A DNA stretch of 64,000 nucleotides, from positions 101,922 through 165,921 of the IMG/VR virus record IMGVR_UViG_3300027193_000501. One strand, written 5' to 3'. The translations under genes and the position numbers were made by a program. Under the pieces are notes generated by a model. It was not told the origin of the DNA, ran no database searches, and saw nothing but the letters and a program-made list of their open reading frames with translations. Below, piece after piece: positions 19,857 to 37,221 of this stretch (within the stretch, counting starts at the first letter, position 1; every line of letters starts with the position of its first letter). This DNA is from a virus (lineage: Duplodnaviria > Caudoviricetes).

Positions 19857-19863
19857 AACAATA

Positions 19864-19900
19864 ACACCCCTACATAAAAATATAGGGGTGTTTCTTTTTT
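19864..19900 (+). terminator. Intrinsic terminator
   Basis: aacaccccta...taggggtgtt followed by T-run. Confidence 0.7.
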
Positions 19901-21330
19901 AATACCACTAACAAAAACATATAGATAAAATAAACATCACTGAGAAGAATAATACATCCAAAAAATAACCTGAAATCTTTACAATAGAGCAATAAAATAT
20001 ACCAAAGAATACAAATACCCTAAACGAATAAAATGTTGCTAGAGATACCCCTTTTTTATACTTAACACCTATAATTACCCCCGTAGTATAAATGAAATAA
20101 TAAAAAATCACATAAGGAAATATAACAAGAGACCGTAAACGAAATATAATAAAAAAATTATACAGATTAGCTTTAGGATTAGAAAGGAGCTGGGAAGTAT
20201 GAAAAATAAGATAATTAGACTAAACGTAAAAATATAATTCTTATATAGGATAATTAATAAAATTACAGTGGATAGTAAATGACATAGATAACCCAAATTC
20301 AAAATACTATATAGAAAAAAAGAATAAAAATAAAAATCACAATGGAGACTGAGTGGAGACTAAAACCCAATTACATAAGAAAGAAACAAAATAACCCATA
20401 TAACAAAAAACAAAAATTCGAGCAATTACAATATAACAATAATTAATTTCCCTATATAAGAAAATAAAAGAAATTCACTTGGTTCTCTACTAATAACAAT
20501 AAAACACATTACTACTAACTAATCACATAGGAAACGATTGATAATAGCTATTGATACATTTTAGCTTATGAGGATAAAGATTTTCGAGTGATTATAAGAT
20601 TTTCGAGCAATTATAAGAGAAGAATAAATAATTACATATAAGGGAGAATATTTAATTTACTATATAGAAGAAATACAAATTAACCTATATGAGAAAAAGA
20701 ATATTCTAAAAGATTATATTTATTACCTAAGAACGAATAATAACTAATAGACAATAAAATAAAATCTATCCAATACTACAAAACAAAAAACAATATACTA
20801 CAAATGAAGAAAAAAAAATAAATTAATACAATAGAGAAAAAACAAATAATAGAATAAATAAGAACAAATAAATATCTATGAAATAATACAATAATAACGA
20901 ATAAGTGGCTTTTTAATACGGGACGGTTAATCAGCACACATTCAAACGTCAAACAATAATCGACAGTTAAACTATAAAATTAACTGTAATTGTTAACATT
21001 CTGTGTAGCTTCAAATAATTCCTCTAAGCTTTATGTATATTTCCGAACCTATTCTTCAATACTTACTTATATGTTGTTCCGCCTTATGTTTATTTTTATT
21101 TACGTTCGATTAAAATATCCACTAATCTTATAGAATTTCGAAGCTAAATCATAAGCCCTATTCTTCTTCTATATATTTTTGTATTCTTTTAATGTCCCTT
21201 ATTATATATTATTATTTCTACACTGTATATTCTAGATACCTGCTAGACATATTTTGTATAATATTGTTACCTATGTAGAAGTGTCTATATATGTATTCTA
21301 TCCTAATTTGTTTTATACCTGCAACTTTTT
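19901..21330. other. Long AT-rich non-coding region with strand-skew inversion; candidate replication origin
   Basis: A/C-rich + strand up to ~20.95 kb, T-rich afterwards and G/T-rich in the following genes; tandem agattttcgagNNattata; inverted repeat acagttaa/ttaactgt. Confidence 0.5.
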
Positions 21331-21897
21331 ATGTTAACCGGCAATATCCATTCTTATATTTCGAGTTCTTTTGTTAATGGTCCTGGAAATCGTTTTGTAT
21401 TATGGTTTCAGGGTTGTTCTAAAGGTTGTCTCGGTTGTTTTAATCCTGAGACTTGGAACGATAGACCTGTTTCTCTTTATACTGTTCAAAGTTTAATTAC
21501 CATAATAGAAAAGATTAATCCTACTGGCATTACTATTTCTGGTGGTGATCCTTTCGAGCAATCTGAATTCCTATTAGAATTATTAAAAGAGTTATATAAG
21601 AAAGATTATAAGGATGGGATTATTGTATTTTCTGGTTTTACTATAGATGAGATTAATAGTGATAATACTATGAGGGATTGTTTAAATTATCTAGACGTTT
21701 TGATAGACGGTAGATTTGTTAAGGATTGTATAACTAAAGATGGTTTAAGAGGCAGTAGTAATCAGAATATAATTTATTTTTCGAGTAAGGTTAAAGATCT
21801 TTTAATTGATCAAGAAGTAGAAGTAGGTTTTGATTACGTTACTGGTTTTCCTCTTATAAATAGTGAATTAATAAAGTTAGGAATTCGAGTAAAGTGA
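21331..21897 (+). CDS. NrdG-like radical SAM activating enzyme
   Basis: VNGPGNR..LWFQGCSKGCLGCFNP (CxxxCxxC), GITISGGDP, DGRF, RGSSNQ. Confidence 0.85.
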   Translation: MLTGNIHSYISSSFVNGPGNRFVLWFQGCSKGCLGCFNPETWNDRPVSLYTVQSLITIIEKINPTGITISGGDPFEQSEFLLELLKELYKKDYKDGIIVFSGFTIDEINSDNTMRDCLNYLDVLIDGRFVKDCITKDGLRGSSNQNIIYFSSKVKDLLIDQEVEVGFDYVTGFPLINSELIKLGIRVK

Positions 21898-22469
21898 CTG
21901 AAACAAGTAAGAGTTATAATTTAAGAATTAGAGAGTGTCATTTCGAGAAGTATTTAAATGGTAAGGGAATTGATATTGGTTCTGGTCCTGATCCTTTAGT
22001 AGTATTAGATGGCACTGTTAAGAGTTATGATTTTAAGCAGGGTGATGCGAATTTTATGGAAGATCAGAAAGACAACATTTATGATTTTGTTTATTCGAGT
22101 CATTGTTTAGAGCATATGAAGAGTGTTAGAACAAGTTTATTTAATTGGTGTAGAATTTTAAAGCCTGGTGGATATTTATATATTACAATTCCAGATTTCG
22201 AGTTATATGAGAAATGTAATTGGCCGAGTAATTTTAATCTAGATCACAAATTTTCTTTTTCGAGTAATTATAAGAGAAGTGATGTTAATAGAATTAATCA
22301 TTATAATATCTCCGAGGATTTAGAGCCGTTATTAAATTCGTATAATGTTAATCTAATAGAAGCTGTATTACAAGATGAAGGTTATGATTATTCTTTACCA
22401 GCTAAGATAGATCAAACTTTAAATGGTGCTTTGGTGCAGATTAATATTATTGGACAAAAAAGATTATAA
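21894..22469 (+). CDS. Class I SAM-dependent methyltransferase
   Basis: GIDIGSG; YDFVYSSHCLEH; RILKPGGYL. Confidence 0.88.
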   Translation: MTETSKSYNLRIRECHFEKYLNGKGIDIGSGPDPLVVLDGTVKSYDFKQGDANFMEDQKDNIYDFVYSSHCLEHMKSVRTSLFNWCRILKPGGYLYITIPDFELYEKCNWPSNFNLDHKFSFSSNYKRSDVNRINHYNISEDLEPLLNSYNVNLIEAVLQDEGYDYSLPAKIDQTLNGALVQINIIGQKRL

Positions 22470-22479
22470 GGGGGATAAT

Positions 22480-22977
22480 ATGGGTAGATTAAAGAAAGTT
22501 GTTGAAGAGACTACTGTAGAAGCTGTGGAAGTTTTCGAAGATGTTGAAACTGTAGAAAACGTAGAAGTAATGGAAGATACAGTAGAAGCGTTAAGGGAGC
22601 CTGTTAATATTAGTACAGGTGAGTTTTATGCTGTTTTCGAGGATGATAGATTAATTGGATATGCTAGGGAAAATTCGAGTAGTTTAGCAAGATATCAAGA
22701 ATCTAATTATAATGAGTTAAGTGATATGTTAGAGAGATATAGTATTCCTTTCGAGAATGAGAAGGATATTTTATTTGCTAACCTTGGATCTGATGCTAAT
22801 TTATATCAATCATGGGCACAGTATCAGCATCAAACGGGAGTAGCGCCTTCTGTTCCACCTATTGTTAACTTACTAGGGTATCACGGTAAGAGACTTAATA
22901 TCCAGGATCCAGAAGAAATTGTTGTTAGATCACATGCTTTTAAATATGTGTTCCAGGTTATTGAAGAACTTGATTAA
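22480..22977 (+). CDS. Hypothetical protein
   Basis: RBS aggggg before MGRLKK. Confidence 0.65.
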   Translation: MGRLKKVVEETTVEAVEVFEDVETVENVEVMEDTVEALREPVNISTGEFYAVFEDDRLIGYARENSSSLARYQESNYNELSDMLERYSIPFENEKDILFANLGSDANLYQSWAQYQHQTGVAPSVPPIVNLLGYHGKRLNIQDPEEIVVRSHAFKYVFQVIEELD

Positions 22978-22987
22978 TATAGTAGAG

Positions 22988-23194
22988 ATGACTGTTTATA
23001 GTTATAGTATTAAATTAAAATACTATAACTATACTAATGAGTTTTTCGAGTATTTAAAAGGTAAAGAAGATAAGAATGATATTTATGATTTGCGATTTGA
23101 TAACCATACAATATTTTTCTTTTCGAAGAGTAAATATACCGGCAATAAATTAATTCAAGAATTCGAGAAGAACAAATTAGAAGACATGGTATAA
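22988..23194 (+). CDS. Hypothetical protein
   Basis: Operon-filling ORF. Confidence 0.45.
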   Translation: MTVYSYSIKLKYYNYTNEFFEYLKGKEDKNDIYDLRFDNHTIFFFSKSKYTGNKLIQEFEKNKLEDMV

Positions 23195-23202
23195 TGTGTT
23201 AG

Positions 23203-23658
23203 ATGAAGCCAGATTATTTAGAACATAGAAATTATTTGGTTAATTATCTTTCTCTTATTTCGAGGGATAGATTATTAGCTGAAGATTTAGTTCAAAGTGT
23301 TTTAATTAATTATTGGATTAATAAACCTGTAGTAAATAATGTTCGAGGTTATCTTAAAATGATGGCTAAAAACTCTTATATAGATTATTACAGGATTAAG
23401 AAACTTAGCATTGTAGATTTAGAGCAAGCTTATCTTATAAATAATGATGTAAATATTTCGAGAGAAGTGGAAGCTAAGGAAACGTTAAGATCTTTAAAAA
23501 TCGAGATTGAAAAATTCGAGTCTATAGATCGTGATATAATGTTATGTTTGTTAGAGGGATATAGTCTTAACGAAATAGCTGTTAATATGAATCTTAATTA
23601 TAATACAGTTAAGGTTAAAGTATTTCGAGCTAGGAAGAAGTTAAGTGCTATATTATAA
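23203..23658 (+). CDS. ECF-type sigma-70 family RNA polymerase sigma factor
   Basis: Region 2 (AEDLVQ...AKNSYIDYYR) and region 4 (EGYSLNEIA...TVKVKVFRARKKL). Confidence 0.88.
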   Translation: MKPDYLEHRNYLVNYLSLISRDRLLAEDLVQSVLINYWINKPVVNNVRGYLKMMAKNSYIDYYRIKKLSIVDLEQAYLINNDVNISREVEAKETLRSLKIEIEKFESIDRDIMLCLLEGYSLNEIAVNMNLNYNTVKVKVFRARKKLSAIL

Positions 23659-23669
23659 AAGGAAAAAAT

Positions 23670-24122
23670 ATGAAGATCTTTTTATCTATTGCAGCTTTAT
23701 TGGCTGTTTCTAATTGTTATGCTTTAGAGTATGGTCCAGCAGCTCCACCTAAGGCACAATCATTTTTTGTCAAGCCTGGTTTTAAGGACGGCAAGATTCA
23801 GAGTGTTTCCATGGGTGTATCTTTAGATGGCCGAAACAGTAATGCTCTTCTTGTTACTAATCTTGATTCTTACAAGGTTTTTAATCGTACAGTAGAAACC
23901 GTAGCTACCGTTAGTACAGATCGCTATGGTAATAAGGCTGCTGTTGGTGCTGGTCTATTACTTCCATTAGGTGAGCATTTCGGTGTATCTCTTAAAGCTG
24001 GGGCCTATTTCGAAGGTACAGATTTAGCTGATAAGGGTCGTATTAGTAATCGTGTCGTTCCCGCAGTTACATGTAGAATCGATTTGAATAAGACACTATC
24101 CGTATTAGGTGTTCGTCTCTAA
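23670..24122 (+). CDS. Secreted/envelope protein with signal peptide
   Basis: MKIFLSIAALLAVSNCYA signal peptide; amphipathic beta-strand pattern. Confidence 0.6.
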   Translation: MKIFLSIAALLAVSNCYALEYGPAAPPKAQSFFVKPGFKDGKIQSVSMGVSLDGRNSNALLVTNLDSYKVFNRTVETVATVSTDRYGNKAAVGAGLLLPLGEHFGVSLKAGAYFEGTDLADKGRISNRVVPAVTCRIDLNKTLSVLGVRL

Positions 24123-24156
24123 AGTGTAACCGTACTTAATCTGGAAATTATTATAT

Positions 24157-24471
24157 ATGATAATTTCCAGTTACACATTAAAATCTAAATGGGATCTCTG
24201 CAAAATTTGTGGAGATCCTTTTCTTACATGTACGTTTAGTAACATTTGTAAAAACTGTGAAAAATATGAAAAAGACAGAATAATAATAATAGCTAAATTA
24301 AAATTCATCTTATTATTATTTATTATTATATATCCGATATTTGCTACAGGATTATTTTTCTTATTAGATTATTTTAAATCTAGTCTTATTCACAAGCTGG
24401 CCGGTCTATTATTTTTAATTCCGCCATTTGGATATATATTAAACAAGAAAATAAATAATACAACATTATGA
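24157..24471 (+). CDS. Zn-ribbon plus 2-TM membrane protein
   Basis: CKIC...CKNC and two hydrophobic helices. Confidence 0.5.
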   Translation: MIISSYTLKSKWDLCKICGDPFLTCTFSNICKNCEKYEKDRIIIIAKLKFILLLFIIIYPIFATGLFFLLDYFKSSLIHKLAGLLFLIPPFGYILNKKINNTTL

Positions 24472-25082
24472 ATATTATCGTTTTATATACTCAAGCGAAA
24501 TTATTAGCCCATATTGTAGGATCTTTTAAAAACGTAATAAAAGGAGATTTAATTTCTATTATCCCTTTATTAGAACAAAACATTACCGCAGCTGTTAATG
24601 AAGGTGAACTGGAAGAGATATTCATTTTAAGATTACATAACTTAAAATATAATCTATACACAATACAAAAAGAAATAAAATATCTAAATGTATTACAGGA
24701 GAATAAAGTTATATTAGATCTTAAACATAGATTAATACAATTCTCTAATAAGAATAAAAATAATCCTAATGTTGGTGAATCTTTTTATATAACATTAGAG
24801 GAACTGGACATTATAAGGGATTCATTAAATTTCTATATTAATATTATGCTGGGAGATTTAGGTTCTGCTTTTAATATAGTAAAACCTTATAGAGATTTCT
24901 TCGTTGATTTTTCTATATATAATAATCTCGCAAGTGGTTTTTTAGACAACGTTACCTTCCATAAAATAACATCAAAAAAGATATTCCGCAAAGTTAGATG
25001 GGGGTATGATATATATAGAGGATTACTTCAGGAAGACCATAAATTAATTGGAACCTTACCTGGAATAAAAATAACAAGATGA
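24468..25082 (+). CDS. Hypothetical protein
   Basis: ATGA-coupled ORF. Confidence 0.6.
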   Translation: MNIIVLYTQAKLLAHIVGSFKNVIKGDLISIIPLLEQNITAAVNEGELEEIFILRLHNLKYNLYTIQKEIKYLNVLQENKVILDLKHRLIQFSNKNKNNPNVGESFYITLEELDIIRDSLNFYINIMLGDLGSAFNIVKPYRDFFVDFSIYNNLASGFLDNVTFHKITSKKIFRKVRWGYDIYRGLLQEDHKLIGTLPGIKITR

Positions 25083-25303
25083 CATTATTAGATTTGACCG
25101 CTATTGATAGATTAATAGATTTATATGGAGATGACCAGTTAGTACGATTTTTAGAAAATGATAATGTGTACAGCCTTGAAGATTTCAGATTATTGTGTGA
25201 AGATAATAACTGGAATTTCTCTATTGATGAGTTCCAAGTATCTGTCTCTGATTTCCCATTATCCCAAGAAGAACCAATTTTAGCCCTTGTAAAAAATGAC
25301 TAG
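25079..25303 (+). CDS. Hypothetical protein
   Basis: Coupled ORF. Confidence 0.55.
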   Translation: MTLLDLTAIDRLIDLYGDDQLVRFLENDNVYSLEDFRLLCEDNNWNFSIDEFQVSVSDFPLSQEEPILALVKND

Positions 25304-25769
25304 CGATCTTTATCAACACGAATATAATAACTTAAATCATTACAACCATAATCACTTGTCTAGATTTTTAGATAAGATTAATTACCCAGACCCAAGAAAT
25401 GTAAACCCAAAAAACATAGATAAAAAGATTAGAGACGGTATAGTAAGAATCAATAAAAGCAATTGGGTTTGGACTGTATACTCATGTTCAGGTCATATGA
25501 ATAAATTTTCTCATCCTTATATCGTATTTATTGTAGATAATAAATATAAAGGACTACTGTTAGAGAATATATATAATTCATTTAATAAAGACATTGATGA
25601 TATTAACTTTCCTCTATTTGGCGGAAGAACATTTGAAATCTCTACCGGCTATTCTGATAATAAATTCTCTATGCTTTCTCTACATATATCTGGTTACAAA
25701 CGAAGCCGACTAAAAGAATACCAATCTATACTAAATAATATACTTTTGAACATTCTCCTTTCACCATAG
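25296..25769 (+). CDS. TYW3-like domain protein (paralog of 14477..14944)
   Basis: IDKKI...IN..NWVWTVYSCSGH...PYIVFIVD. Confidence 0.5.
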   Translation: MTSDLYQHEYNNLNHYNHNHLSRFLDKINYPDPRNVNPKNIDKKIRDGIVRINKSNWVWTVYSCSGHMNKFSHPYIVFIVDNKYKGLLLENIYNSFNKDIDDINFPLFGGRTFEISTGYSDNKFSMLSLHISGYKRSRLKEYQSILNNILLNILLSP

Positions 25770-25840
25770 ATATATTATCATATGCTACATAGGATGCAAT
25801 ATAATCCCTAATTTATTTTAGGGATTTTTTGTTTTAATCC

Positions 25841-25863
25841 ACAAGCCTAACCTCCAGTGTAAC
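25841..25863 (+). repeat. Half-site of the 22-bp cassette palindrome
   Basis: acaagcctaa-cctc-cagtgt matches one arm plus flank of the 47.9-58.2 kb repeats. Confidence 0.65.
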
Positions 25864-25915
25864 ATAATAGAAATTTAGTGTTGCTAGTGTTATAGTAAAT
25901 GTGATATATTAGGGC

Positions 25916-26167
25916 ATGAGAAAAATGCGAGTGGTTTTTACAGCAGAGTTTGAAATACCAGATAATGTTGTAATTCATGACGGCGGAATATTCGAATGTG
26001 AAGGCGTAGTATTTGAACCTGAATTAAACTTTAATTGTGTCGAAGTGGATGTTAATAATCCAGAAGAATTGATTCAGTTTCCTAATGATATCTGGTCTGT
26101 TAGTGAATATGAAATTAAACATATTCGAGTAAATTCAACAATAGAGGTAGAGAATAATGAAGATTAA
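25916..26167 (+). CDS. Hypothetical protein (leaderless)
   Basis: -10 box just before ATG. Confidence 0.6.
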   Translation: MRKMRVVFTAEFEIPDNVVIHDGGIFECEGVVFEPELNFNCVEVDVNNPEELIQFPNDIWSVSEYEIKHIRVNSTIEVENNED

Positions 26168-26393
26168 TTTTTCAGTTACCGGCACTATGGAAATTCCTGA
26201 TGATGCAGTTTTTCATCAAGATATTTTAAATCAATTATATGCAGTTGAGTTTAATAATAAAATGTATATGCTTCAGGTATGTTTAGTTGCTGAAAGTCCT
26301 AATGGTGAATATGAAATGTTACACCAATATGACGACATGGAAAAACATGATATTAAAAATGTTCGTTATGATTCAGCAGAGTTTAGCGAATAA
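26157..26393 (+). CDS. Hypothetical protein
   Basis: RBS gagg; terminator follows. Confidence 0.6.
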   Translation: MKINFSVTGTMEIPDDAVFHQDILNQLYAVEFNNKMYMLQVCLVAESPNGEYEMLHQYDDMEKHDIKNVRYDSAEFSE

Positions 26394-26486
26394 AATATAG
26401 CCCAGAAAATAATCTGGGCTTTTTCTTGCTATCGTATGTAACAGGTGATACTATTCTTTGTTGGTGATTTTGATTAGGAGAATAAA

Positions 26487-27140
26487 ATGCCGAACTGGGT
26501 AATGAACGAACTAACCTGCATCTTCCAAACTAAGGAAGAGTGCGATTCTTTTATGAGCAAGGTAGATGAAGATAATTTATATCATTCTTTCTTCCCTATG
26601 CCTGAGATTTTGAGCGAAACACAAAGTCCTGATGTTAATGTAAATGCATTGATTCTTGATTACAATCGGGAAACAAATTCTACAGCAATGGGTCTCACTG
26701 AAATTATCAACAGTGGTCATTCTTTGTTTACAAGTATTGCACAACAGGCTCTCAAGAATCAACAAGCACAAATCGCTACTGGATTCACTAACTGGTACGA
26801 TTGGTCTGTTGATAATTGGGGTGTCAAGTGGGATGCTTCTCAAGTTATAGTAAAAAAACTACCTGATTTCAATACAGTAATTTATTCTTTCAATAGTCCT
26901 TGGGATACTCCAGAGAAATTTGTAGAAGGATTGTCTAAACTGTATCCTAATGTTGTATTCGAGATGGTATCGGGTTCTATTGAAAATGATAACCATTATG
27001 AGTTTACCTGTAAGGATGGCAAACTTGAAATAACCTGTTGCTATGGTTCATTTCGAGAAGCCGTAGAATGTGGTAAATGGGGCGGTATGGCTGAATGGGC
27101 TGAAGTATTTGAGGAGAGTGAAGAAAGTGACGCTGAGTAA
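26487..27140 (+). CDS. DUF1281/YubB ferredoxin-like domain protein
   Basis: MPNW..N; WYDW...NWG.KW; F.SPW..P. Confidence 0.8.
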   Translation: MPNWVMNELTCIFQTKEECDSFMSKVDEDNLYHSFFPMPEILSETQSPDVNVNALILDYNRETNSTAMGLTEIINSGHSLFTSIAQQALKNQQAQIATGFTNWYDWSVDNWGVKWDASQVIVKKLPDFNTVIYSFNSPWDTPEKFVEGLSKLYPNVVFEMVSGSIENDNHYEFTCKDGKLEITCCYGSFREAVECGKWGGMAEWAEVFEESEESDAE

Positions 27141-27336
27141 ACTTATCGCAGAACTCCAGAAAATTAAAAAAGAGTATGGAGACGTTGATTGTGTCCTCTC
27201 TATTGACACATCTGATGCTTTTAATGAGACTAACCTTCTTGATGTTGTAGTAAATAAATATGAAGCAATGGACACTAATGATGGTTATGTCTATAGTGTA
27301 TGTCTTCACGGTGAACTGACCCAACAAGAAGACTAA
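27127..27336 (+). CDS. Hypothetical protein
   Basis: GTG start, LSKLIAELQKIKKEYGD. Confidence 0.55.
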   Translation: MTLSKLIAELQKIKKEYGDVDCVLSIDTSDAFNETNLLDVVVNKYEAMDTNDGYVYSVCLHGELTQQED

Positions 27337-27388
27337 AAGATATTGGGGAGATGCTTGCATCTCCCCTTATCATATGTTATAATAAGCC

Positions 27389-27586
27389 ATGGAAAACCTT
27401 AAGTGGATATCAGCAATGTCAGAACGATTGAGAGATGAACTTTCAAAAGAGTATGATGACGAAACTAAAGATTTAATTATTAGAGCATTTCGTAACGGGC
27501 TATTCCAAAATCCCGGTATTGTGGAAGAATTAAAATCTTCTTCTCTAATTGAATCAGATTATTTCGAGGATGCAGATGAAGATTGA
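27389..27586 (+). CDS. Hypothetical protein (leaderless)
   Basis: TTGCAT-N17-TATAAT-5nt-ATG. Confidence 0.6.
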   Translation: MENLKWISAMSERLRDELSKEYDDETKDLIIRAFRNGLFQNPGIVEELKSSSLIESDYFEDADED

Positions 27587-27797
27587 AAAATTTATCTATA
27601 TGGCTGATGGCTTCTATGTTTATAAAATGGAAGATGGATATGCAGTCAAAGACCAATTCGGCTATACATTAAAAACAGCCAAGACAGTTAAGACTTGCGA
27701 GAGATATGTCCAACTACAATTACAAACAAGAAGAGTAGCAGAAAGATATGCAATTGAAAAAATTAATGACGAACACAAAAAAAATCGAGCAAGTTAA
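27576..27797 (+). CDS. Hypothetical protein
   Basis: RBS gagga. Confidence 0.55.
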   Translation: MKIEKFIYMADGFYVYKMEDGYAVKDQFGYTLKTAKTVKTCERYVQLQLQTRRVAERYAIEKINDEHKKNRAS

Positions 27798-27827
27798 AGA
27801 ACTAAAAGAACAAGGTATAATTTAAAT

Positions 27828-28076
27828 ATGTTGCCTATAATCAGTGTATTAATTTTATCTTCCTTAAACCCGATTAAGAATTTCGTATCATTAAAAACTT
27901 ATATCTCTGAGAATGCTAAGATTCATTGTCAAGTATATTTTATTGATGAAAATATCGCAGACTATCCTAGAGTAAATATAATCGAAAAATCCAAAGATGA
28001 TTTTTTTATATATCTAGATTCTATTGGGGTAGAACACAAACAACTAGGCGGATACTATTTTTTTAAGAAGAAATAA
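27828..28076 (+). CDS. Hypothetical protein
   Basis: TATAAT just upstream of ATG. Confidence 0.5.
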   Translation: MLPIISVLILSSLNPIKNFVSLKTYISENAKIHCQVYFIDENIADYPRVNIIEKSKDDFFIYLDSIGVEHKQLGGYYFFKKK

Positions 28077-28177
28077 TTCACAATGATGTATATTATTTTA
28101 TTTGATATTATTGTAACAATTGTTATACTTTTTGTTATTACTAGGTTGAAATCTAGATTGCGGTGATATAATACCTT

Positions 28178-29074
28178 ATGAACCTCTCCTTGTGTTGTAT
28201 ATCTAATGTCTTGGCTGAACAGGGATATAAATTCCGCACCATGACATATAAATCTTTTTCTTCCAAACCGAGAGAGGAATCATTAGAAAAGTTATCTTCT
28301 ATAATAAGTAATAATTTTTCTGTTGCTGAGAAGATAGTAAAGCATTGTTCTTCTTCTGGTATTAAAGGTTATCGTTTGTCTTCTGATTTATGTCCAGTAA
28401 TTAAGCATCCTGATGTTATGTTAAATTTAGAAGATTTGCCTAACTATGGATTTATTAAGTATGAGATAGATAAATTAAAAAGAACTATTAAAGAAACAGG
28501 TATTCGTGTTTCTGCTCATCCATCAGAATATATTACTCTTACTTCTGATGACCCTGTGAAAGTAAATCATTCTATTGTTGATTTGGAATTTCATGGGGAG
28601 ATATTTGATAGATTAGAATTATCCCAAACGTATTATAATCCACTTAATATCCATGTACGAAAAGAAGGCGAAGCAGATGCATTAGCCAAAACATTCATGG
28701 ATAATTATAATAAGTTATCTGACAGTGTAAAGAATAGACTTGTATTAGAAAATAATGATACAGGTAATACTTGGACTGTTGCTAATCTAAAGAAATATTT
28801 TTATTCTTCTCACGGTATTCCAGTAACATTTGATAATTTACATCACGAAATGTTAAATCATGGAACATCTTATTATGATGCTTTTTATGATGCTCTTTCT
28901 ACTTGGACAGTTCAGCCTTTATTCCATTACAGTGAAGGAAAGAACGGTACAAGAGCGCACAAGGATATGGCGGAGCATTTACCTACACATTATGATGAAG
29001 ATGTAATGTTTGATGTAGAGCTTAAGAGTAAAGACTATGCTATACTGGATATGTTGAGGAAAAACAATGGATAA
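28178..29074 (+). CDS. uvsE: UV-damage endonuclease (UvsE/UvdE)
   Basis: YRLSSDL.P, RVSAHP, LNIH, RLVLEN, FDNLHH, PLFHYSE, AH, DVELKSKD. Confidence 0.92.
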   Translation: MNLSLCCISNVLAEQGYKFRTMTYKSFSSKPREESLEKLSSIISNNFSVAEKIVKHCSSSGIKGYRLSSDLCPVIKHPDVMLNLEDLPNYGFIKYEIDKLKRTIKETGIRVSAHPSEYITLTSDDPVKVNHSIVDLEFHGEIFDRLELSQTYYNPLNIHVRKEGEADALAKTFMDNYNKLSDSVKNRLVLENNDTGNTWTVANLKKYFYSSHGIPVTFDNLHHEMLNHGTSYYDAFYDALSTWTVQPLFHYSEGKNGTRAHKDMAEHLPTHYDEDVMFDVELKSKDYAILDMLRKNNG

Positions 29075-29288
29075 AGTAATCTCGCAGTTAAAATCTTTTG
29101 ATATCGTAAATAAGAATGAAGGTTTACAGACACAATCTATTTCATTCAGAGACAAAGATAATAATCTCCATATGATGATTCGAAATAGGATGACTTTTGA
29201 TTCCTGTTCTCTTTATAGCAATGTGGATGGTGAGAATGTTAATATTGTAATTCCTAGAATCCATTTTGACACATATTGGAATTTCTAA
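29067..29288 (+). CDS. Hypothetical protein
   Basis: RBS gagga. Confidence 0.55.
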   Translation: MDKVISQLKSFDIVNKNEGLQTQSISFRDKDNNLHMMIRNRMTFDSCSLYSNVDGENVNIVIPRIHFDTYWNF

Positions 29289-29802
29289 TGTGGATATTAC
29301 ATTAAAAGAATTATATGATAGATTAAATAATGAACCTTGGGGATGGGCAGTCTCTCCTATTTTAAATACAATAGGCGGGTCAGGCTTATTCCCCACTGTT
29401 GCTTTCTTCTTGTTAAAAGAACATAAAGCAATATTAGGTTTAGGCGATAGAAATGAATCATCTGTCTTCGCATTACCAGATTTAGATTTGTCATCCACAG
29501 AAGCAACAAAATTATCTGTAAATATGATGCAGTTAACCGCATTTGAAAAAGAAGCAGACGGTGTTGCTATTATTGGTGTGGGATACAAAGACGATGATAC
29601 AGAAGAATATACCGCTTATTGTAGAATAGAAATGCCTAACAAACATTATTTATCTAAAACAAACAGCAATATAAAGAATAATAAATTAATATTCAACTTA
29701 TCTAATCTATTCAATTTTATCGAATATGATAATTTAAACTTAGATATGACATACTCCAGAATATTACCAAATAACTATATTGAAATAAATCCAGAAATTT
29801 GA
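29266..29802 (+). CDS. Hypothetical protein
   Basis: Long ORF, start uncertain. Confidence 0.55.
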   Translation: MTHIGISNVDITLKELYDRLNNEPWGWAVSPILNTIGGSGLFPTVAFFLLKEHKAILGLGDRNESSVFALPDLDLSSTEATKLSVNMMQLTAFEKEADGVAIIGVGYKDDDTEEYTAYCRIEMPNKHYLSKTNSNIKNNKLIFNLSNLFNFIEYDNLNLDMTYSRILPNNYIEINPEI

Positions 29803-29808
29803 TACACT

Positions 29809-30045
29809 ATGCAAGAATACAAATTCTTAGTGGCTGGAACTATGAAGTCTAATCTAAAACCTCATAAAGACGAAAATGGGAATGTTATGTTAGAAGATGA
29901 ATGTGGGAATTTATATCTCCCATGCTTAGGTGTAGTAAAATTAGATTCAAATAATAAAGAACATTTTATTAATGAATCTATACTAAACTCTATTGGTCTT
30001 GAATCAATAGAATATAATCAGAAAACAGGAATCTATGGGAAATAA
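29809..30045 (+). CDS. Hypothetical protein
   Basis: Operon ORF. Confidence 0.5.
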   Translation: MQEYKFLVAGTMKSNLKPHKDENGNVMLEDECGNLYLPCLGVVKLDSNNKEHFINESILNSIGLESIEYNQKTGIYGK

Positions 30046-30397
30046 TTATATCACTTACAATTCAAAAGGTGCTAAACCACAACCTGAAAGAATCGGAACT
30101 CATGCTAAACTAAATAGAGTAAGATTAATTTATAACCAAAGAGTTCGTGAATTAAATTATAATAACGTTTCTGTATGCGATGTTATTACACAGAATGGCT
30201 ACGTTATATCTTATCATAATCTACTAACAATTTTATCAAGAGGAACGATGAACGCAAATCATATTAAACAATTGGCAAAAGCAATACAAGTAGATGAACA
30301 TATGCTAGCAGAAGCCTGTATTAAAACATACAATAATTGGAAAAATAAAATAGTAGAAGACTATGGTGATGTTGACCAGTTTATAGATAACTTTTAA
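30035..30397 (+). CDS. Putative HTH-type DNA-binding protein
   Basis: XRE-like pattern (ISYHNLLTILSRG...IKQLAKAIQVD). Confidence 0.4.
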   Translation: MGNNYITYNSKGAKPQPERIGTHAKLNRVRLIYNQRVRELNYNNVSVCDVITQNGYVISYHNLLTILSRGTMNANHIKQLAKAIQVDEHMLAEACIKTYNNWKNKIVEDYGDVDQFIDNF

Positions 30398-30490
30398 ATT
30401 ATAAGAGAGACAATAATATGTCTCTCTTTTTTTGTCCCTACCTTGCAATGTGTAGCATATGTGGTAATATATGTGTGAAGGGATTTTATT

Positions 30491-32491
30491 ATGATAGCAG
30501 AAACAACCAACAATGTTATTATTCGTAGTAACAATAGCGTAGAGACATTTTTCTCCATTAAAGAAGAGAATACAGCGCATATTTTCTCAATTCTCAGGGG
30601 ACAACTATATTCTGATAAGATAATGGCTATTATTCGTGAATACAGCACGAATGCCTTAGATGCTCATGTTGCTTCTGGTATTACAAAGCCTATCAACATT
30701 AGCCTACCGTCTTATTGGGGCGATGGTAAGTTTGTAGTTCGTGATTATGGCACTGGTTTGTCCGATGATGATATTAAAAATGTCTTTGCATCCTATGGCG
30801 AATCTACAAAGCGAAATACAAATAATCAAGTAGGTATGCTTGGTCTGGGTAGTAAATCCGCTTTTGCATATACTAGCACATTCCTTATTACCTCTTATCA
30901 CAATGGTATTAAAAATGTATACAATGCTTTTATCGATGAATCCAATAAAGGTGTAGTATCGCTCGTTTCATCTTCCGAAACAGATGAAACTGGATTAGAA
31001 ATTACAATCCCAATAAAAGCACAAGACGCTAAAATATTATCTGATAAATGTTATTTCTTCTTCCGATATTGGGATAATATTCCTACCTTCAATAATGATA
31101 ATATCGTCCGGCAGATTAACACATTCAAGTCTTCATTCAAAACCCTAGAAGGCAATAACTGGTATATTGTTAAAAAGCACTATGGTGAACCGACTCTTAT
31201 CGTTCATATGGGAAATATCGCTTATCCTGTATCTACTGAAAATATTAATCTAGAATCTGATGATAGAAAAATATTAGACCAAAACGGTTACACTATTCAT
31301 CTTAAAGCAGAAATTGGTGATGTTACAAATTCAGCGTCTAGGGAATCATTAGAATTAAATGATAAAACCCAAAAATGGATTATCAACGCTATCAATAATA
31401 TCAACGTGGAAGTGCAAAAAGTAATACAGCAGAAGGTTACTAAATGCCGTAGTATCTTTGAAGCAAAATCAATCTATTATGATGTTTCGTTTGCAAGTAT
31501 GGGAATTCCGTCTTATAAATATAATGCTCATACTATAACAAATAATAATCTTTCATTAGACGGAGCGAAAGTAAAAGTATATTATAGTACTCTTGCTAAT
31601 CGGGCTAGAATTCAAAAATATATTATTTGCCAATCGAATACAGTCTATTATGTTGCTAGTCCTTGTACTCCAGAATATACTATTAAACAAAGATTAATCC
31701 AACATCTAGGTGATAGTGAAAAGCCTACATTAATATATTTCTCATCTGATGCAAAAGCGCAAGAATTTATTAATAGTCCAGATATGATTGGAGCAAATCT
31801 AGTTCATGTCAAAACCTTACCTGCTGTTCAATCGGTCAAATCCAAAACACCGAGAGTAGCAATGGCAGATGCAGAATATTATTCTTTCAATAGATATGGT
31901 AGTACTAACAGCGACCATTGGAAAGTTGCGAAAGAAGTAGACTTGGATGAACAGCGAATTTATGTTGTTATTTCCAGATTCTCCCCTGAACGCAACGGAT
32001 TGAAATTTGATATCACTAACAGCACTATTAACGATTTAGAACAATATGGTATTAAAAATATCATCGGTGTTAAACCAAAACATATTAAATCTGTAGGTGA
32101 TTCTTGGCTTAGTCTTACAGAAGCGTTAAAGAAAAGTGCAGACGAACTATATTATAATAATGAACAGGAGATTAATAAACTCTTAGAAGCAGAACGTGTA
32201 GATGATTTATTCAAGTCCATTCATAGATATAAAACGTCAAATACTAGTATCACAAATCCTGAATTGAAATATATTATGGAATTGCTTGATTTCGCTGATA
32301 ATGATTACAAAAGCGCAAATGCTCTTCATAATATTAAAATGATAAAAGCGTATATTAATTATAATATTCCATACGAACCTTACATTGTTAAAGAAAAACA
32401 AGAAGTTCTAATGAAGGATGAAAAGATTAATATTATCTCCCAATACATTAGAAGCCCATTTTCAATATATAATCAAATAATGGAAATGTAA
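30491..32491 (+). CDS. rIIA: rIIA-like protein (GHKL ATPase N-terminus)
   Basis: LYSDKIMAIIREYSTNALDAH, RDYGTGL, STKR...GMLGLGSKSAFAY; adjacent rIIB. Confidence 0.85.
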   Translation: MIAETTNNVIIRSNNSVETFFSIKEENTAHIFSILRGQLYSDKIMAIIREYSTNALDAHVASGITKPINISLPSYWGDGKFVVRDYGTGLSDDDIKNVFASYGESTKRNTNNQVGMLGLGSKSAFAYTSTFLITSYHNGIKNVYNAFIDESNKGVVSLVSSSETDETGLEITIPIKAQDAKILSDKCYFFFRYWDNIPTFNNDNIVRQINTFKSSFKTLEGNNWYIVKKHYGEPTLIVHMGNIAYPVSTENINLESDDRKILDQNGYTIHLKAEIGDVTNSASRESLELNDKTQKWIINAINNINVEVQKVIQQKVTKCRSIFEAKSIYYDVSFASMGIPSYKYNAHTITNNNLSLDGAKVKVYYSTLANRARIQKYIICQSNTVYYVASPCTPEYTIKQRLIQHLGDSEKPTLIYFSSDAKAQEFINSPDMIGANLVHVKTLPAVQSVKSKTPRVAMADAEYYSFNRYGSTNSDHWKVAKEVDLDEQRIYVVISRFSPERNGLKFDITNSTINDLEQYGIKNIIGVKPKHIKSVGDSWLSLTEALKKSADELYYNNEQEINKLLEAERVDDLFKSIHRYKTSNTSITNPELKYIMELLDFADNDYKSANALHNIKMIKAYINYNIPYEPYIVKEKQEVLMKDEKINIISQYIRSPFSIYNQIMEM

Positions 32492-32558
32492 CAAATGATG
32501 ACAGGAGGGCTTGCATCCCTCCTGTCATATGATATACTATTCTTGAAAGGAAATTAGT

Positions 32559-33830
32559 ATGGAACCTTCATTCACTTGTAATCCCGCCCCATCATCCGGA
32601 TTCCTCACCGTGTTCATTGATTCTGAACAGTACACCATTACAGCGGAGAACGTAAACTTTCGTAATGCTATCAAGTTTCTCTCCGAAAAGAATTGGGAGG
32701 AACTGAAATTCGTTCTCAACCCTACTCTTAAGTTTAATTCCCTCTACGCACAATATGAGAATATTATTGTTAAAGACGGCAATGTAACAATCGATGGGGA
32801 AATGGTAAACGGCATTATCGCATCTCGTATTATTAATCTCATGGCTAATAATATCGACTGTACACCGATTTTCAAGTTCATGACCCGACTACAATTAAAT
32901 CCTAGCAAAAGAGCAGTGGATGAATTGTATACATTCTTAGAGCATAGGAATTTGCCCATTACATCCAATGGCACAATTCAAGCCTACAAAGCAGTGAGAG
33001 CAAATTACACCGATTGTCATACTGGAACGTTTAATAATACGGTTGGTAATACTCTTCAAATGCCTCGTAACAAGGTCGATGATAACAAGGACGTAGGATG
33101 CTCCCACGGCTTCCATGCAGGGACATTTGATTACGCCAAAGACTTTATGCCTGAAGGCGGTCATCTGCTCATCGTGGAAATCGACCCTGCTGATGTTGTA
33201 AGTATTCCAACAGATTGTAATTTCCAGAAATTGCGTACCTGTAAATATAAGGTTACACAAGAATATAATGTAACCTTGGATGAAAATAAAATTCAGGATT
33301 CATATCTGGAAACAGACAATGATACTTATGTTAATCAGAAATGGGAAAACAAACCATTAATGATGGATGTAATATCTGTATCCGATGTTGTTAATCTTCT
33401 TGACAAATGGGGAGAAGATGAAGCAGTACAAGATATTAAAAAAATATCCCCGACAGAAGATGTAATGCCTCTGGGTGTATTAAAAGATACTATATCTGAA
33501 AACCTCTTTGATGAACTAATGGAAGAATTCGAGGAGCAAGACCCTGAAGAATTCGAGCCGGAAGAACAAGACTCCGAGGAATTCGAGGATGATGAGGATG
33601 AGGATTCTTACGAGGAGATTACTGTAGACCTATCATCTCATATTGATATGAAGGCTACATTAAAGAACCTTGATGAAGCACAATATGTTAAGCTGAAGAA
33701 CGCATTGGAAAAGGAATACAAAGATTTCGAGTCTGTTCAAATGGGAGAAGTATTAAAATATATTGATTCCATCTATGACGATTCAGATTATATTTTCGAT
33801 ATCCTTCTGCAATATAAAGTAGACGCATAA
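32559..33830 (+). CDS. rIIB: rIIB-like protein with acidic tail
   Basis: NPS..AV.ELY.FL, AYKAV, CSHGFHAG, DPADVVSIP.D...KLRTCKY.V. Confidence 0.85.
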   Translation: MEPSFTCNPAPSSGFLTVFIDSEQYTITAENVNFRNAIKFLSEKNWEELKFVLNPTLKFNSLYAQYENIIVKDGNVTIDGEMVNGIIASRIINLMANNIDCTPIFKFMTRLQLNPSKRAVDELYTFLEHRNLPITSNGTIQAYKAVRANYTDCHTGTFNNTVGNTLQMPRNKVDDNKDVGCSHGFHAGTFDYAKDFMPEGGHLLIVEIDPADVVSIPTDCNFQKLRTCKYKVTQEYNVTLDENKIQDSYLETDNDTYVNQKWENKPLMMDVISVSDVVNLLDKWGEDEAVQDIKKISPTEDVMPLGVLKDTISENLFDELMEEFEEQDPEEFEPEEQDSEEFEDDEDEDSYEEITVDLSSHIDMKATLKNLDEAQYVKLKNALEKEYKDFESVQMGEVLKYIDSIYDDSDYIFDILLQYKVDA

Positions 33831-33884
33831 AGAATTTCGAGGGAGATTGCTTGCAGTCTCCCTCTTTCCATGTTACACTACATT

Positions 33885-34253
33885 ATGATTCACTACCTCA
33901 AGAACTATGATACTAGCCTTGAAGAACGCAAGGATGATATAGAATATTTAAAATCTTATGTTCTAGACACATCCAAGTTGTATCATGTAGCGTCAGGTAA
34001 TATAGCCTTCCCTGAGAACGACATCATATCCCCGAAGAGATTGTGGATTGAATCACTATGCCTCTTCACCGATTCAGACATCCCGTTCTATGAAAGAAAT
34101 ATAATCACCCTATACCATTCCAACCCAATAGGAATTAAATATGGTGATGTGATTGGGAATAATAAAATAGGATACGCTCTACGAATCCCATACCCAAATA
34201 TATTCTTCCCAATTAAAATGATAGATTTCTCATTCGACCCTTGCAACCTGTAG
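33885..34253 (+). CDS. Hypothetical protein (leaderless)
   Basis: TTGCAG-N17-TACACT-5nt-ATG. Confidence 0.55.
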   Translation: MIHYLKNYDTSLEERKDDIEYLKSYVLDTSKLYHVASGNIAFPENDIISPKRLWIESLCLFTDSDIPFYERNIITLYHSNPIGIKYGDVIGNNKIGYALRIPYPNIFFPIKMIDFSFDPCNL

Positions 34254-34284
34254 CATATGTGATAATATATGTGTGGAGGAAATA

Positions 34285-34974
34285 ATGGAACCAAATCAAA
34301 ACATCATCGAGAAGATTAAGAAACTACTCGCCCTTTCAGCATCCCCTAATGAGAACGAAGCATCCACCGCCCTGAGAATGGCAATGGATATGCTCTCTAA
34401 ACATAACCTCTCTATGACAGAAATCAACGTAGAGAAAAAAGAATCTGTAGAACACGAAGAAGTAAAGTTCACCGGCAAGAGATTTTCTACATGGCGAACA
34501 GAATTGCTTAACTCTGTATCTGATGCTCACTATTGTCACATCCTAAAAGTATCTGGCACTGGAGTATATTATATTATCGGCAAGCAAACGAACAGACAAG
34601 CAACTATCTTGATGTTTACATACTTAGCCAATGTTGTAGAATTTGAATGCAAAAGTCATATGGCTAGCCTGTCCCTTACCAAACAAGAAGGCAAGACATA
34701 TGCTAACAGTTTCAAACTAGGCATGGTTCATAGACTACGACAAAGATTGATGGAAAAGAAGAATTCTATTATCTTAGAGTCAAAGTCCAATGCTCTTATT
34801 AAAGTAGACCCATATACGCTTTCTAAGGCTGAAAACAACGACTACATAAGAAGCAAGTTTAGAGTAACACAACAGCAGGAGAGCAACAGTAGAATCAACG
34901 GTAGTGCTTATGCTCAAGGCGATAGAGCAGGTAATAGAGTTGGGCTTAATGGCTCTAGAGCGATAACAGCTTAA
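34285..34974 (+). CDS. DUF2786-domain protein
   Basis: IEKIKKLLALS.SPNENEA..A...A..ML.KHNL; ends AY..G..AG..V.L. Confidence 0.82.
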   Translation: MEPNQNIIEKIKKLLALSASPNENEASTALRMAMDMLSKHNLSMTEINVEKKESVEHEEVKFTGKRFSTWRTELLNSVSDAHYCHILKVSGTGVYYIIGKQTNRQATILMFTYLANVVEFECKSHMASLSLTKQEGKTYANSFKLGMVHRLRQRLMEKKNSIILESKSNALIKVDPYTLSKAENNDYIRSKFRVTQQQESNSRINGSAYAQGDRAGNRVGLNGSRAITA

Positions 34975-35084
34975 TAATAAAAACCTAATAGAAGGAGAGG
35001 CTAATACCCTCTCCTTATTTTTTTTAAAGGATTATTCCCTAAGCAACAGCCAAAAATAACAATATTACTCTTTGGAGATTACAT

Positions 35085-36041
35085 ATGGCTTTTGTATATG
35101 ACCCGGCAACAATATTATCAATCACTACAAATATAGGTAATGCGGATGCGACATTACAGGCAGAGGTTAATACTCTTCCTTCTACTTATATCATTGGAAC
35201 TGTATCTGTTAGTAATACAGTAGTAACAGGAACAGGAACAACATGGCAAGTATCACCCTTTTTATCAGGGGCTAGAATTGGATTCGGTAGTACTAACCCA
35301 GATTTAATTTCTACTTGGTATGATGTAACAGTGATTAATACAAATACACAAATCACATTATTATCCTCTGCTGGTATTATTGGTTCTGGTTCCTCCTATG
35401 TATTACAACAGAAAAGAAGCGGATTAAAGCTTGGAACTGAAAATAGATTAACAGTAGCAGATTGTATTGCTGATAATAATATTGTTAATGCTGATTTTGA
35501 TAGTAGCACAATATTAGCACAGAGCATGAGAACATCAGAAAACGCATTGTCCAGCACTTTGTCTTCTGTTTACGCATCTTATCAAACAGCATTAGATACA
35601 TATGTTAACGCTAATAAATCAGCAACAGTAAGAAATTATTATAATTCCTTATCCGTAGAAAGATCAGTAGCATTTACAGAAAATTATCGTAGTTTCTATA
35701 GAAGAATTAAATCAGAAGAATTGATTGTAAAATTATATTCTAATACCAAATCCGTAGGTGTCTGGGGTTCTACTGTTAACCACTACTCTACTACTAATAT
35801 GCTTGCTACTCTGCTGGAAGTTAGAACAGGGTCTCTCATCGGTGCTTCTGATGTTGTTGTTACCCTAGTGCCAATCAAATCAGATGGAACTAACGATTCA
35901 CCAAAGACTTTAAATATACCAGCAACAACAGCAAATAAAACTCAATACGCAATCAATGATACTACAAAATATAAAGGAATATTTTCTATTGGAATCACAG
36001 GCGGAACCAATGGAGATATTATTGAAGTTTGGATTAAATAA
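35085..36041 (+). CDS. Probable virion structural protein
   Basis: T/S/G-rich beta sequence, GTVSVSNTVVTGTGTTW. Confidence 0.5.
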   Translation: MAFVYDPATILSITTNIGNADATLQAEVNTLPSTYIIGTVSVSNTVVTGTGTTWQVSPFLSGARIGFGSTNPDLISTWYDVTVINTNTQITLLSSAGIIGSGSSYVLQQKRSGLKLGTENRLTVADCIADNNIVNADFDSSTILAQSMRTSENALSSTLSSVYASYQTALDTYVNANKSATVRNYYNSLSVERSVAFTENYRSFYRRIKSEELIVKLYSNTKSVGVWGSTVNHYSTTNMLATLLEVRTGSLIGASDVVVTLVPIKSDGTNDSPKTLNIPATTANKTQYAINDTTKYKGIFSIGITGGTNGDIIEVWIK

Positions 36042-36228
36042 AATAATATAGTATTACATCCTAAACCCTTATATTATTTTTAATATAGGGGTTTTTCTTT
36101 ACCTAACCACCAGCACAAAATAATACGAATATCTCAAAATATCTGCTAATTGTCCTTGCATTGTCTGTAGCATTTGATACTATAGGACATCCAACCAATC
36201 TGGGCGGAGAACTTTGGGAGAAAAAAAG

Positions 36229-36900: not shown

Positions 36901-37030
36901 TCTGGTAATATTAGTTGTCGCTGATATACAAAATACTAAAAGAAAGTAAACCTTGCTTTAAAAGTTTTGTGCGATAAAATATCAGCGACAACTTTGGAAT
37001 GATGGTATAATAGATATGTAAGTTTGGTGA

Positions 37031-37112
37031 GGCACCTTGGCGAAATTGGCATATGCGACAGCCTTAAAAGTTGTTGGGGCAACCCATGAGAGTTCGACCC
37101 TCTCAGGTGCTA
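37031..37112 (+). tRNA. tRNA-Leu(TAA)
   Basis: Cloverleaf, ACAGC-CTTAAAA-GTTGT anticodon arm, long variable arm, GTTCGA T-loop. Confidence 0.88.
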
Positions 37113-37118
37113 TGGTTT

Positions 37119-37191
37119 GGGACGGTAACTCAGTGGCTAGAGTAGTCGCCTTTTAAGCGATTTGTCGTGGTTTCGAATACCACCCGTCCCA
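37119..37191 (+). tRNA. tRNA-Lys(TTT)
   Basis: GGGACGG/CCGTCCC acceptor stem, loop CTTTTAA. Confidence 0.9.
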
Positions 37192-37221
37192 TTGTTTGAT
37201 TAAATTCTTTGGGAGATTAAA

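Follow-up and report, generated by a model that had tools for sequence, protein, structure and literature searches.

Gene Content and Layout of the TTCGAG Locus

The 64,000-nucleotide stretch of phage DNA analyzed here (the window) makes up the end portion, 64 kb, of one viral contig of 165,921 bp (IMG/VR record IMGVR_UViG_3300027193_000501, hereafter G000), for which CheckV gives a completeness of 46%. The window carries a strand-polar zone of the hexamer TTCGAG, with 43 copies on the + strand and 0 on the − strand, the densest part of which is a proximal cluster of 21 copies at 20417..23629 (+ strand) that is kept in every relative covering the region. Terminal repeats were sought on the contig and none were found, and a megablast search against the phage collection returned zero matches. 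The zone starts not at a gene but in a 1.4-kb non-coding leader (19857..21330, + strand), which contributes three of the 21 clustered copies; the other 18 lie in five coding sequences on the same strand. These encode an NrdG-like radical-SAM activase (21331..21897, four sites), a class I SAM methyltransferase that is absent from the L001 lineage of relatives (21894..22469, four sites), a conserved 165-aa protein of unassigned fold with an acidic N-terminus (22480..22977, three sites), a 71-aa open reading frame (ORF), and a sigma-70-family factor with regions 2 and 4 (23203..23658, five sites). The 165-aa protein is conserved across part of the phage family described below and combines a Val/Glu-rich, disordered N-terminus with an alpha/beta domain that is confidently modelled over residues 45-165. 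Block-mean values of the predicted local distance difference test (pLDDT) are 87-95 from residue 51, and the model has no Foldseek match in the PDB.

The leader consists of an A-rich half followed by a T-rich one, and between them lies a conserved block that contains the inverted repeat ACAGTTAA/TTAACTGT. In both the window and the related contig L047, the A-rich half contains TATA-like, promoter-like units of the form C-Y-ATATA-R-G, positioned 18-22 nt upstream of TTCGAG copies. The T-rich half contributes a conserved promoter-like TAGATA-18-TATAAT element at 21233-21262, ~70 nt before nrdG. A genome-wide promoter role for the leader CTATATAAG unit was considered and rejected, given just 3 + 3 copies in 166 kb. 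The inverted repeat of the conserved block (~20930-21000) is only modest, with a folding z-score of -1.6.

GC skew and AT skew both reverse abruptly within the leader irrespective of gene orientation, even where its flanking genes share a strand, a behavior seen in three lineages (window 19857-21330; L047 5118-6700; L002 ~4000-6500; L057 ~2600-3400). To the left of this switch the + strand is A- and C-rich, with A reaching 52%, and to the right it is G-rich and C-poor. The dense cluster of the window starts ~0.5 kb before the switch; in the related 358-kb genome G157, the first zone sites lie ~5 kb before it. Across the first 2.3 kb of genes, C is extremely scarce on the sense strand (9.6%, with G at 20% and a GC skew of +0.3 to +0.5), and 18 of the 43 CpG dinucleotides there (42%) sit in TTCGAG. 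This C-poor block ends at the stop codon of the sigma-70-family factor.

Abundance of TTCGAG and Selection at the Nucleotide Level

An initial annotation of the window had reported 21 exact + strand copies between 20417 and 23629, with fewer than one expected by chance in these 3.2 kb. The positions are exactly as listed, and an unbiased k-mer scan of the stretch ranks TTCGAG first, with 21 copies observed versus 0.31 expected from the remaining genome (Poisson p = 2.5e-31). Two further claims, that the first 20 kb lack the word and that the inverse word CTCGAA is essentially absent, hold as well: positions 1-20416 have no TTCGAG on either strand, and the + strand has no CTCGAA in the whole window. 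Dinucleotide-preserving shuffles of the window yield 17.2 ± 3.9 copies with both strands summed (maximum 26). Across all 165,921 bp of the contig, TTCGAG is found 45 times on the + strand and 7 times on the − strand (that is, as CTCGAA on the + strand). Of the 45 + copies, 43 are found from genome position 122,338 onward, and the seven CTCGAA are confined to the first 92 kb. Enrichment inside the zone is 5- to 40-fold, and peak density reaches one copy per 150 bp.

The codon-preserving shuffle that had been named beforehand as the refuting test leaves the enrichment standing. Synonymous-codon shuffles of the five cluster coding sequences give 2.48 ± 1.45 TTCGAG (maximum 8 in 2000 shuffles) versus the 18 observed, and the test is conservative, in that it retains codon usage already inflated by TTCGAG itself. 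The hexamer spells Phe-Glu in 8 of 9 cluster cases, as compared with 1 of 86 in the first 121 kb, and the rare codons TCG and CGA are over-used in the cluster. Among 118 sites from five lineages, frames 0, 1, and 2 are used 47, 15, and 31 times, positions along genes are uniform, and 79% of copies are in coding DNA; the intergenic portion, 21%, compares with a non-coding share of 22%. The synonymous shuffles and frame counts together rule out a codon or peptide effect as the source of the word. An in-frame EEFE peptide repeat does generate three of the 43 window copies, at 33.5 kb, but periodic peptide repeats are rejected as a general source, these three being all that they explain. Because the enrichment survives synonymous shuffling and the word occupies three frames as well as non-coding DNA, TTCGAG is a strongly selected, directional nucleic-acid signal, kept by selection on nucleotides and neither a coding nor a chance effect.

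Polarity of the Zone and Purging of the Inverse Word

In coding sequences from ~23.7 to ~53 kb, downstream of the dense cluster, TTCGAG occurs 17 times in the sense orientation versus 5.0 expected and 0 times in antisense versus 4.5 expected. A wider comparison, in which the codons of direct TTCGAG sites were held fixed during shuffling, covers zone coding sequences of four lineages and finds CTCGAA once versus 10.5 expected, a count as low as this arising in 0 of 300 shuffles. Outside the zone both orientations are at chance (4 vs 6.2 and 5 vs 9.0 expected). The inverse CTCGAA is thus purged inside the zone.

The same polarity extends through genes that run the other way. Three embedded counter-strand genes carry zone-oriented copies on their antisense strand, written with rare codons. 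A convergent gene in G001, the 129-kb record of a near relative, has two zone-oriented copies, each read gaC TCG AAn, and its colinear homologue lies on the − strand of G000. In the L001 lineage, a 144-aa gene between the leader and nrdG has two to three zone-oriented copies; it is kept open and is 81-99% identical in 13 database proteins, with an invariant Arg-Leu-Glu over one of the copies. A counter-strand methyltransferase gene in the middle of the dense zone of G157 (PHROG E = 1.3e-15) likewise bears two. Since embedded opposite-strand genes keep the zone orientation, the polarity of TTCGAG is a property of the DNA zone and not of each gene's mRNA. The embedded genes weaken an RNA-level reading, although read-through from the block could still place their copies in RNA.

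Direct and inverse words are paired only in the palindrome TTCGAG-CTCAG-CTCGAA, found twice in the related 347-kb genome G158 (35109-35125 and 35365-35381, which correspond to L091 5110-5126 and 5366-5382). The two palindromes are 256 bp apart and lie within identical longer repeats.

Anatomy of the Word

Alignment of 141 sites from five lineages shows information limited to the hexamer and weak flanks, with T or A at -1 in 95%, A or T at -2 in 86%, and A at +7 in 59%, giving a fuller form WWTTCGAG-N-A. No partner element, whether a -10/-35 box or a second half-site, is present from -45 to +35 of these sites. Nor is there a hairpin context: flanks are non-complementary, the energy of local folding is unremarkable, and the motif shows no excess of unpaired bases over controls. 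Spacing has no helical or other period; the median nearest-neighbor distance is 109 nt and the spread is roughly exponential. One-mismatch neighbors are unenriched apart from TTCGAA (3.8-fold) and TTCTAG (6-fold), which refutes a degenerate motif, and TTTGAG is observed 0 times versus 4.2 expected. From this lack of enrichment among its neighbors, TTCGAG is exact in the manner of a restriction site.

A tRNA gene array, suggested by the T-loop word GGTTCGAG, was rejected as an origin of the copies: ARAGORN and Rfam find 5-6 tRNAs in the window and none overlaps a copy. A few TTCGAG copies in the relatives are true tRNA T-loops. Other polar words in sister phages (GAAGCA in L059, AGATGA in L058, GCTAAG in L061) were set aside as they look like in-frame coding words. 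An instructive contrast is found in the unrelated phage L036, where 20 copies of AATGCA stand beside an NrdG gene (10786-12968) with a strict 18-nt period; these stem from two hexapeptide-repeat (beta-helix-like) proteins and serve as a negative control. Polar words are also listed, unchecked, for early blocks of unrelated phages (ATAACAG, TAACAG, TTATATT, CGGGAG, and AAACGGATT). A literature search returned nothing relevant on TTCGAG or CTCGAA as a known recognition word. The G000 contig also lacks the palindromes CGCG (0 vs 39-117 expected) and CTCGAG (0 vs ~10 expected), complete avoidance of the kind expected under restriction pressure.

Conservation in a Family of Jumbo Phages

Seventeen related records from at least seven lineages, a number of them reached via the 165-aa protein as a clade marker, the rIIA gene, or the NusG gene, each have one polar TTCGAG zone; they include near-complete genomes of 358 kb and 347 kb. 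The carriers form a family of roughly 350-kb uncultured freshwater phages of the lytic jumbo type. In the loci of the nearest IMG/VR relatives, L001 and L002, whose NrdG is 49% identical, the module strand has 24 copies and the other strand 0, with 19 copies within 3.3 kb from just upstream of nrdG. The whole 129-kb G001 record, to which L002 belongs, has 55 and 13 copies on the two strands, and nearly all of those on the module strand fall at 101.3-123.5 kb. Nine metagenome contigs (L044-L052) in which the 165-aa marker is 62-97% identical have 6-27 copies each on the module strand and 0 on the other. The corresponding counts are 18 and 0 in L053 (JALRHN010000140.1), which is binned in a metagenome-assembled genome (MAG), and 21 and 2 in L056 and 46 and 1 in L057, both of which were reached via rIIA (35-36% identical). 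The two near-complete genomes were found via the NusG gene. In G157 (358 kb, 89% complete), which is syntenic with the window, ~54 copies make up one zone at 173-197.5 kb with no inverse word inside it. In G158 (347 kb, 99% complete) one zone extends from 33.5 kb; it has no protein match to the window block at E = 1e-5, yet uses the same word. Each near-complete genome thus has one zone, amounting to ~4-7% of its length.

Wherever homologous genes are found, they place the start of the zone in the leader of the block of early genes that holds nrdG, the sigma factor, and rIIA/B. TTCGAG itself persists in at least seven lineages, including ones with protein identity as low as 34-36%. Individual sites are less durable. 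Within nrdG, two positions are common to the window and the 63-69% identical lineages and one is common with the 44-49% lineage, the others having turned over. At the far end of its zone, G001 has a second dense cluster of 19 copies, where the equivalent part of the window (44.4-47.9 kb) has just three. This turnover and the lineage-specific distal cluster indicate that selection maintains density, not position. Sister phages with similarly divergent rIIA (L058-L065) have no zone: counts on the two strands of their loci are 4/5, 6/3, 2/2, and fewer, and those of WTTCGAG in whole records of 66-70 kb are 5/4, 6/15, and 7/9.

The L053 contig is a 5.5-kb member of the phage family binned in a Candidatus Kapaibacterium sp. 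MAG, which may be a weak hint of the host or a binning artefact. Neither this binning nor the similarity of the phage NusG to that of Patescibacteria, described below, is decisive as to the host.

The Remainder of the Zone and Its Genes

Beyond the sigma-70-family factor, the zone continues more sparsely over 23659..50922 (+ strand), with 21 further copies and 0 inverse words. Sub-clusters lie at 26124-27568, 33528-33841 (five sites), 45769-45791 (two sites), and 50329-50922 (six sites), all on the + strand; the last three had been noted in the initial annotation. Several copies are fitted into transcription signals. In a terminator hairpin that follows rIIB, the copy at 33836..33841 (+ strand) makes up the 5' flank and some of the stem, and the copy at 50807-50812 (+ strand) lies within a terminator loop; TTCGAG is likewise fitted into UUCG-type terminator loops or stems in L056, L057, and L001. 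Two tandem TTTTCGAGTAT copies (45769..45791, + strand) stand between a terminator and the consensus promoter of a tRNA-Asn, and copies directly 5' of the TATAAT of tRNA promoters are found in several lineages.

The zone tracks a co-oriented block of early-type genes for 10-30 kb. Its members include nrdG, the sigma-70-family factor, rIIA, rIIB, a UvdE-type endonuclease, a Dam-class methyltransferase, ClpP, and tRNAs, along with numerous small ORFs arranged as promoter-terminator cassettes. The gene for the UvdE-type (UV-damage) nicking endonuclease (window 28178-29074) is more strongly conserved than any other in the block. It is 65-89% identical to its counterparts in the TTCGAG-bearing relatives compared, including 70-76% in the distant L001 and G157, where neighboring genes are at 35-50%; identity to the TTCGAG-free sisters L058 and L059 is 42%. 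An orphan D12-class (Dam-like) N6-adenine DNA methyltransferase is encoded within the block at 43528-44385. Searches of the G001 and G002 fragments did not find it, on which ground it was rejected as the reader of the word; G157 has a weak homologue (24.6% identity). The HNH endonuclease of the G001 distal cluster was rejected as well, not being conserved in G000. A GC-rich (~47%) DUF932-family gene (window 48135-49460) is conserved at 56-58% identity; the dense zone ends 0.6-0.7 kb upstream of it in L057 and G001 and 2.6-2.8 kb upstream in L056 and G157.

Comparison with Known Polar Words

TTCGAG belongs to a known class of polar words that are read by density. The Chi sites of Escherichia coli phage LLS (20 vs 3 sites) and Pseudomonas phage MD8 (32 vs 0) are clustered in one orientation, and like TTCGAG they are a short exact word confined to one part of the genome and running through genes (PMC12315714). 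Those phages use the host's known Chi beside an open cos end at about one site per 1-2 kb, whereas TTCGAG is as dense as one per 150 bp, its zone matches the early block, and its inverse is purged.

Polar words on the non-template strand are also read during transcription, as in the ops element and the TTNTTT pause words of NusG; the Bacillus subtilis word occurs at many dispersed sites, and the phage has a NusG homologue. In contrast to the hexamer, ops spans 12 nt, and operon leaders have one or two copies of it. To our knowledge, no NusG-type factor reads TTCGAG. The GGAG sites of T4 RegB resemble TTCGAG in that both are short words over-represented in the early mRNAs of large lytic phages and tied to the timing of early expression. 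RegB, however, acts on RNA and its sites are mainly in Shine-Dalgarno regions, whereas TTCGAG is uniform along genes and keeps the orientation of the DNA zone even inside genes on the opposite strand. Stoperators of Cluster A mycobacteriophages, bound by L5 gp71, are many asymmetric sites oriented with transcription that silence it. They are 13-14 bp long, number ~24-30 per genome, are mostly intergenic, and belong to temperate phages with a known repressor; TTCGAG, by comparison, is an exact 6-mer through coding sequence in a lytic-type jumbo phage, its information confined to six bases and weak flanks. The nick sites of T5 and Pseudomonas phage tf share with TTCGAG an exact, asymmetric, one-strand word but are far fewer and dispersed. 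Finally, the EcoP15I sites of T7, which evade Type III restriction by their single orientation, provide a case of an asymmetric word running one way with its inverse selected against. T7 shows genome-wide loss of one orientation rather than a 40-fold local gain, and for TTCGAG both orientations are at chance outside the zone.

Candidate Readers of the Zone

An exact hexamer that is density-based and directional over a 10-30-kb early block points to a reader moving one way through that block, and we tentatively favor, as this machine, the early transcription complex together with a NusG-type reader. G000 encodes a full-length NusG homologue with NGN and KOW domains at 85598-86188 on the − strand (L042 5598-6188), outside the window (PF02357 E = 1.8e-21; PHROG annotation "transcription antiterminator"). 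Related NusG genes are present in G157 and G158, the two other zone genomes complete enough to judge, and the closest named cellular matches are from Patescibacteria (33-38% identity). RfaH reads ops and B. subtilis NusG reads TTNTTT, both on the non-template strand. All window copies are on the sense strand of the block and peak in density within 3 kb downstream of the leader promoters, and the composition of the C-poor proximal block is that expected for Rho evasion.

TTCGAG is a strand-polar zone word of the early block: its copies are randomly placed every ~100-300 bp, their density peaks within ~3 kb downstream of the promoter-bearing leader, and the inverse is purged from the zone. A NusG-type factor would read the word on the exposed non-template strand of the early elongation complex, and this reading would alter pausing or Rho-type termination in the early block. 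As a result early transcription might stay processive or, if the phage NusG homologue appears later, stop. Avoidance of the inverse word would follow, as each inverse copy would otherwise draw the factor to antisense transcription. A co-transcriptional reader would account for the promoter-proximal peak, the C-poor, Rho-evading composition, and the purging of the inverse word.

Several points weigh against this proposal. We infer both the identity of the reader and its effect, and NusG serves as a lead only. Shared ancestry could by itself explain why NusG and the zone occur in the same genomes, and contigs of more distant phages that carry NusG lack the zone. NusG was also not found in the G001 and G002 fragments, which are only 15-36% complete. 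Known ops and nut signals comprise one or two promoter-proximal copies, not dozens. The timing of the block is inferred from gene content only, and the avoidance of the inverse under a NusG model rests on argument, not data. A DNA-tracking nuclease or translocase predicts all of the features equally well, with the exception of the match to transcription direction and the C-poor block.

Such a tracking enzyme is the next possibility, somewhat less probable than a NusG-type reader. TTCGAG, or CTCGAA if the other strand is read, might switch or steer a host helicase-nuclease of the RecBCD/AddAB type, or a phage helicase-nuclease or translocase, in the manner of Chi or of FtsK-orienting polar sequences (KOPS), so that the dense array would protect or guide first-entering or replicating DNA. 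The exact, short, polar, density-based, and randomly spaced word with its turnover of positions fits this proposal, as do a polarity that is a property of the DNA strand, the single zone per near-complete genome, and the LLS and MD8 precedent. Zone boundaries nevertheless follow the early gene block, and Chi logic predicts no purging of the inverse word. In the Ca. Kapaibacterium MAG, the only one with a contig of this phage family, TTCGAG is not over-represented, occurring 363 times versus 909 for a reversed-word control, although binning is weak evidence of host; a survey of 151 genomes from that phylum added no information. The records are linear fragments without end repeats. A comparison with KOPS and SpoIIIE recognition sequences (SRS) found no polarity flip: there are 0 − strand copies left of the skew switch and one polarity across it. 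This last result also bears on the idea favored by the initial annotation, a directional protein-loading signal beside an origin. Its directional part stands, in that the word is polar and selected and the zone starts where the skews invert. The link to loading of an initiator, primase, or partition protein does not, and is the least probable of the explanations considered. In its favor, the zone begins in or beside a non-coding tract with a gene-independent inversion of GC and AT skew in three lineages, and the leader has repeated units. No mirror-image copies lie beyond the switch, however; the zone starts 0.5-5 kb before the switch, extends 10-30 kb past it, and follows the early block. The copies have no partner and no iteron-like spacing, 79% of them are in coding DNA, and the second dense cluster of G001, 20 kb away, is lineage-specific.

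Reading at the level of RNA is doubtful. UUCGAG in early transcripts might be the target of an endoribonuclease or RNA-binding protein that times mRNA decay or translation, comparable to T4 RegB at GGAG, and the sense orientation of the word in all co-oriented early genes of every lineage, along with its confinement to the early block, fits such a tag. It is opposed by the embedded opposite-strand genes, whose own mRNAs lack the word, by the lack of bias toward unpaired RNA, and by several copies that are partly base-paired in terminator stems or loops. Late genes show no avoidance of the word, avoidance of the inverse is left unexplained, and the RegB profile PF10715 gave no match in the 46%-complete contig, nor in any control genome. 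Unlikely, too, is a phage nickase that would cut one strand at TTCGAG, producing one-strand interruptions like those of T5 and tf, although here the local purging is well explained: inverse sites, which are purged only where direct sites are dense, would be removed since close opposite-strand nicks would break the DNA. Restriction-enzyme-grade exactness, the presence of every copy on one strand, and the strong conservation of the UvdE-type nicking endonuclease in the zone (70-76% vs 35-50% for neighbors) are also in line with nicking. Known nicked phages, however, have from a few to some tens of genome-spread nicks, not one per 150 bp, and such dense nicking would be without evident benefit. 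UvdE enzymes are damage-specific as far as is known, and homologues are present in the TTCGAG-free sisters L058 and L059. More improbable still, even when taken together, are an epigenetic mark such as asymmetric methylation and an origin of the word as a non-functional by-product, whether of CTCGAG avoidance, of C-to-T mutation biased toward one strand, or of peptide repeats. The phage-encoded D12-class adenine methyltransferase would suit a mark, but it was not found in G001 or G002. For a by-product speak the absence of CTCGAG from 166 kb, with TTCGAG one C-to-T change away, and the three copies from the EEFE repeat. A ~40-fold local excess, however, cannot arise by erasing a site expected ~10 times in 166 kb. 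The use of three frames and non-coding DNA, the unenriched one-mismatch neighbors, and the persistence of one word across at least seven lineages to 34-36% protein identity are further points against it, such that codon shuffles, one-mismatch counts, and lineage comparison all contradict a by-product.

Implications for Early Gene Control in Jumbo Phages

Few genome-wide cis-codes are known, and they include short polar words that a tracking machine reads by their density, such as Chi, KOPS, ops, and the pause words of NusG. TTCGAG is an unusually clean example, as an exact hexamer that is enriched ~40-fold, with its inverse purged, in a single 10-30 kb early block. Its exactness, the sharp zone, family-wide conservation, and a candidate phage-encoded factor make it well suited to a search for the reader. 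In practical terms, the word shows where the early region lies, and which way it runs, in contigs of uncultured jumbo phages. A more general and speculative idea is that clade-specific polar zone words of large phages constitute a distributed cis-code, in which a phage NusG-type or other elongation factor would read the non-template strand to switch the early block on or off. If true, such reading would be a new mode of temporal control.

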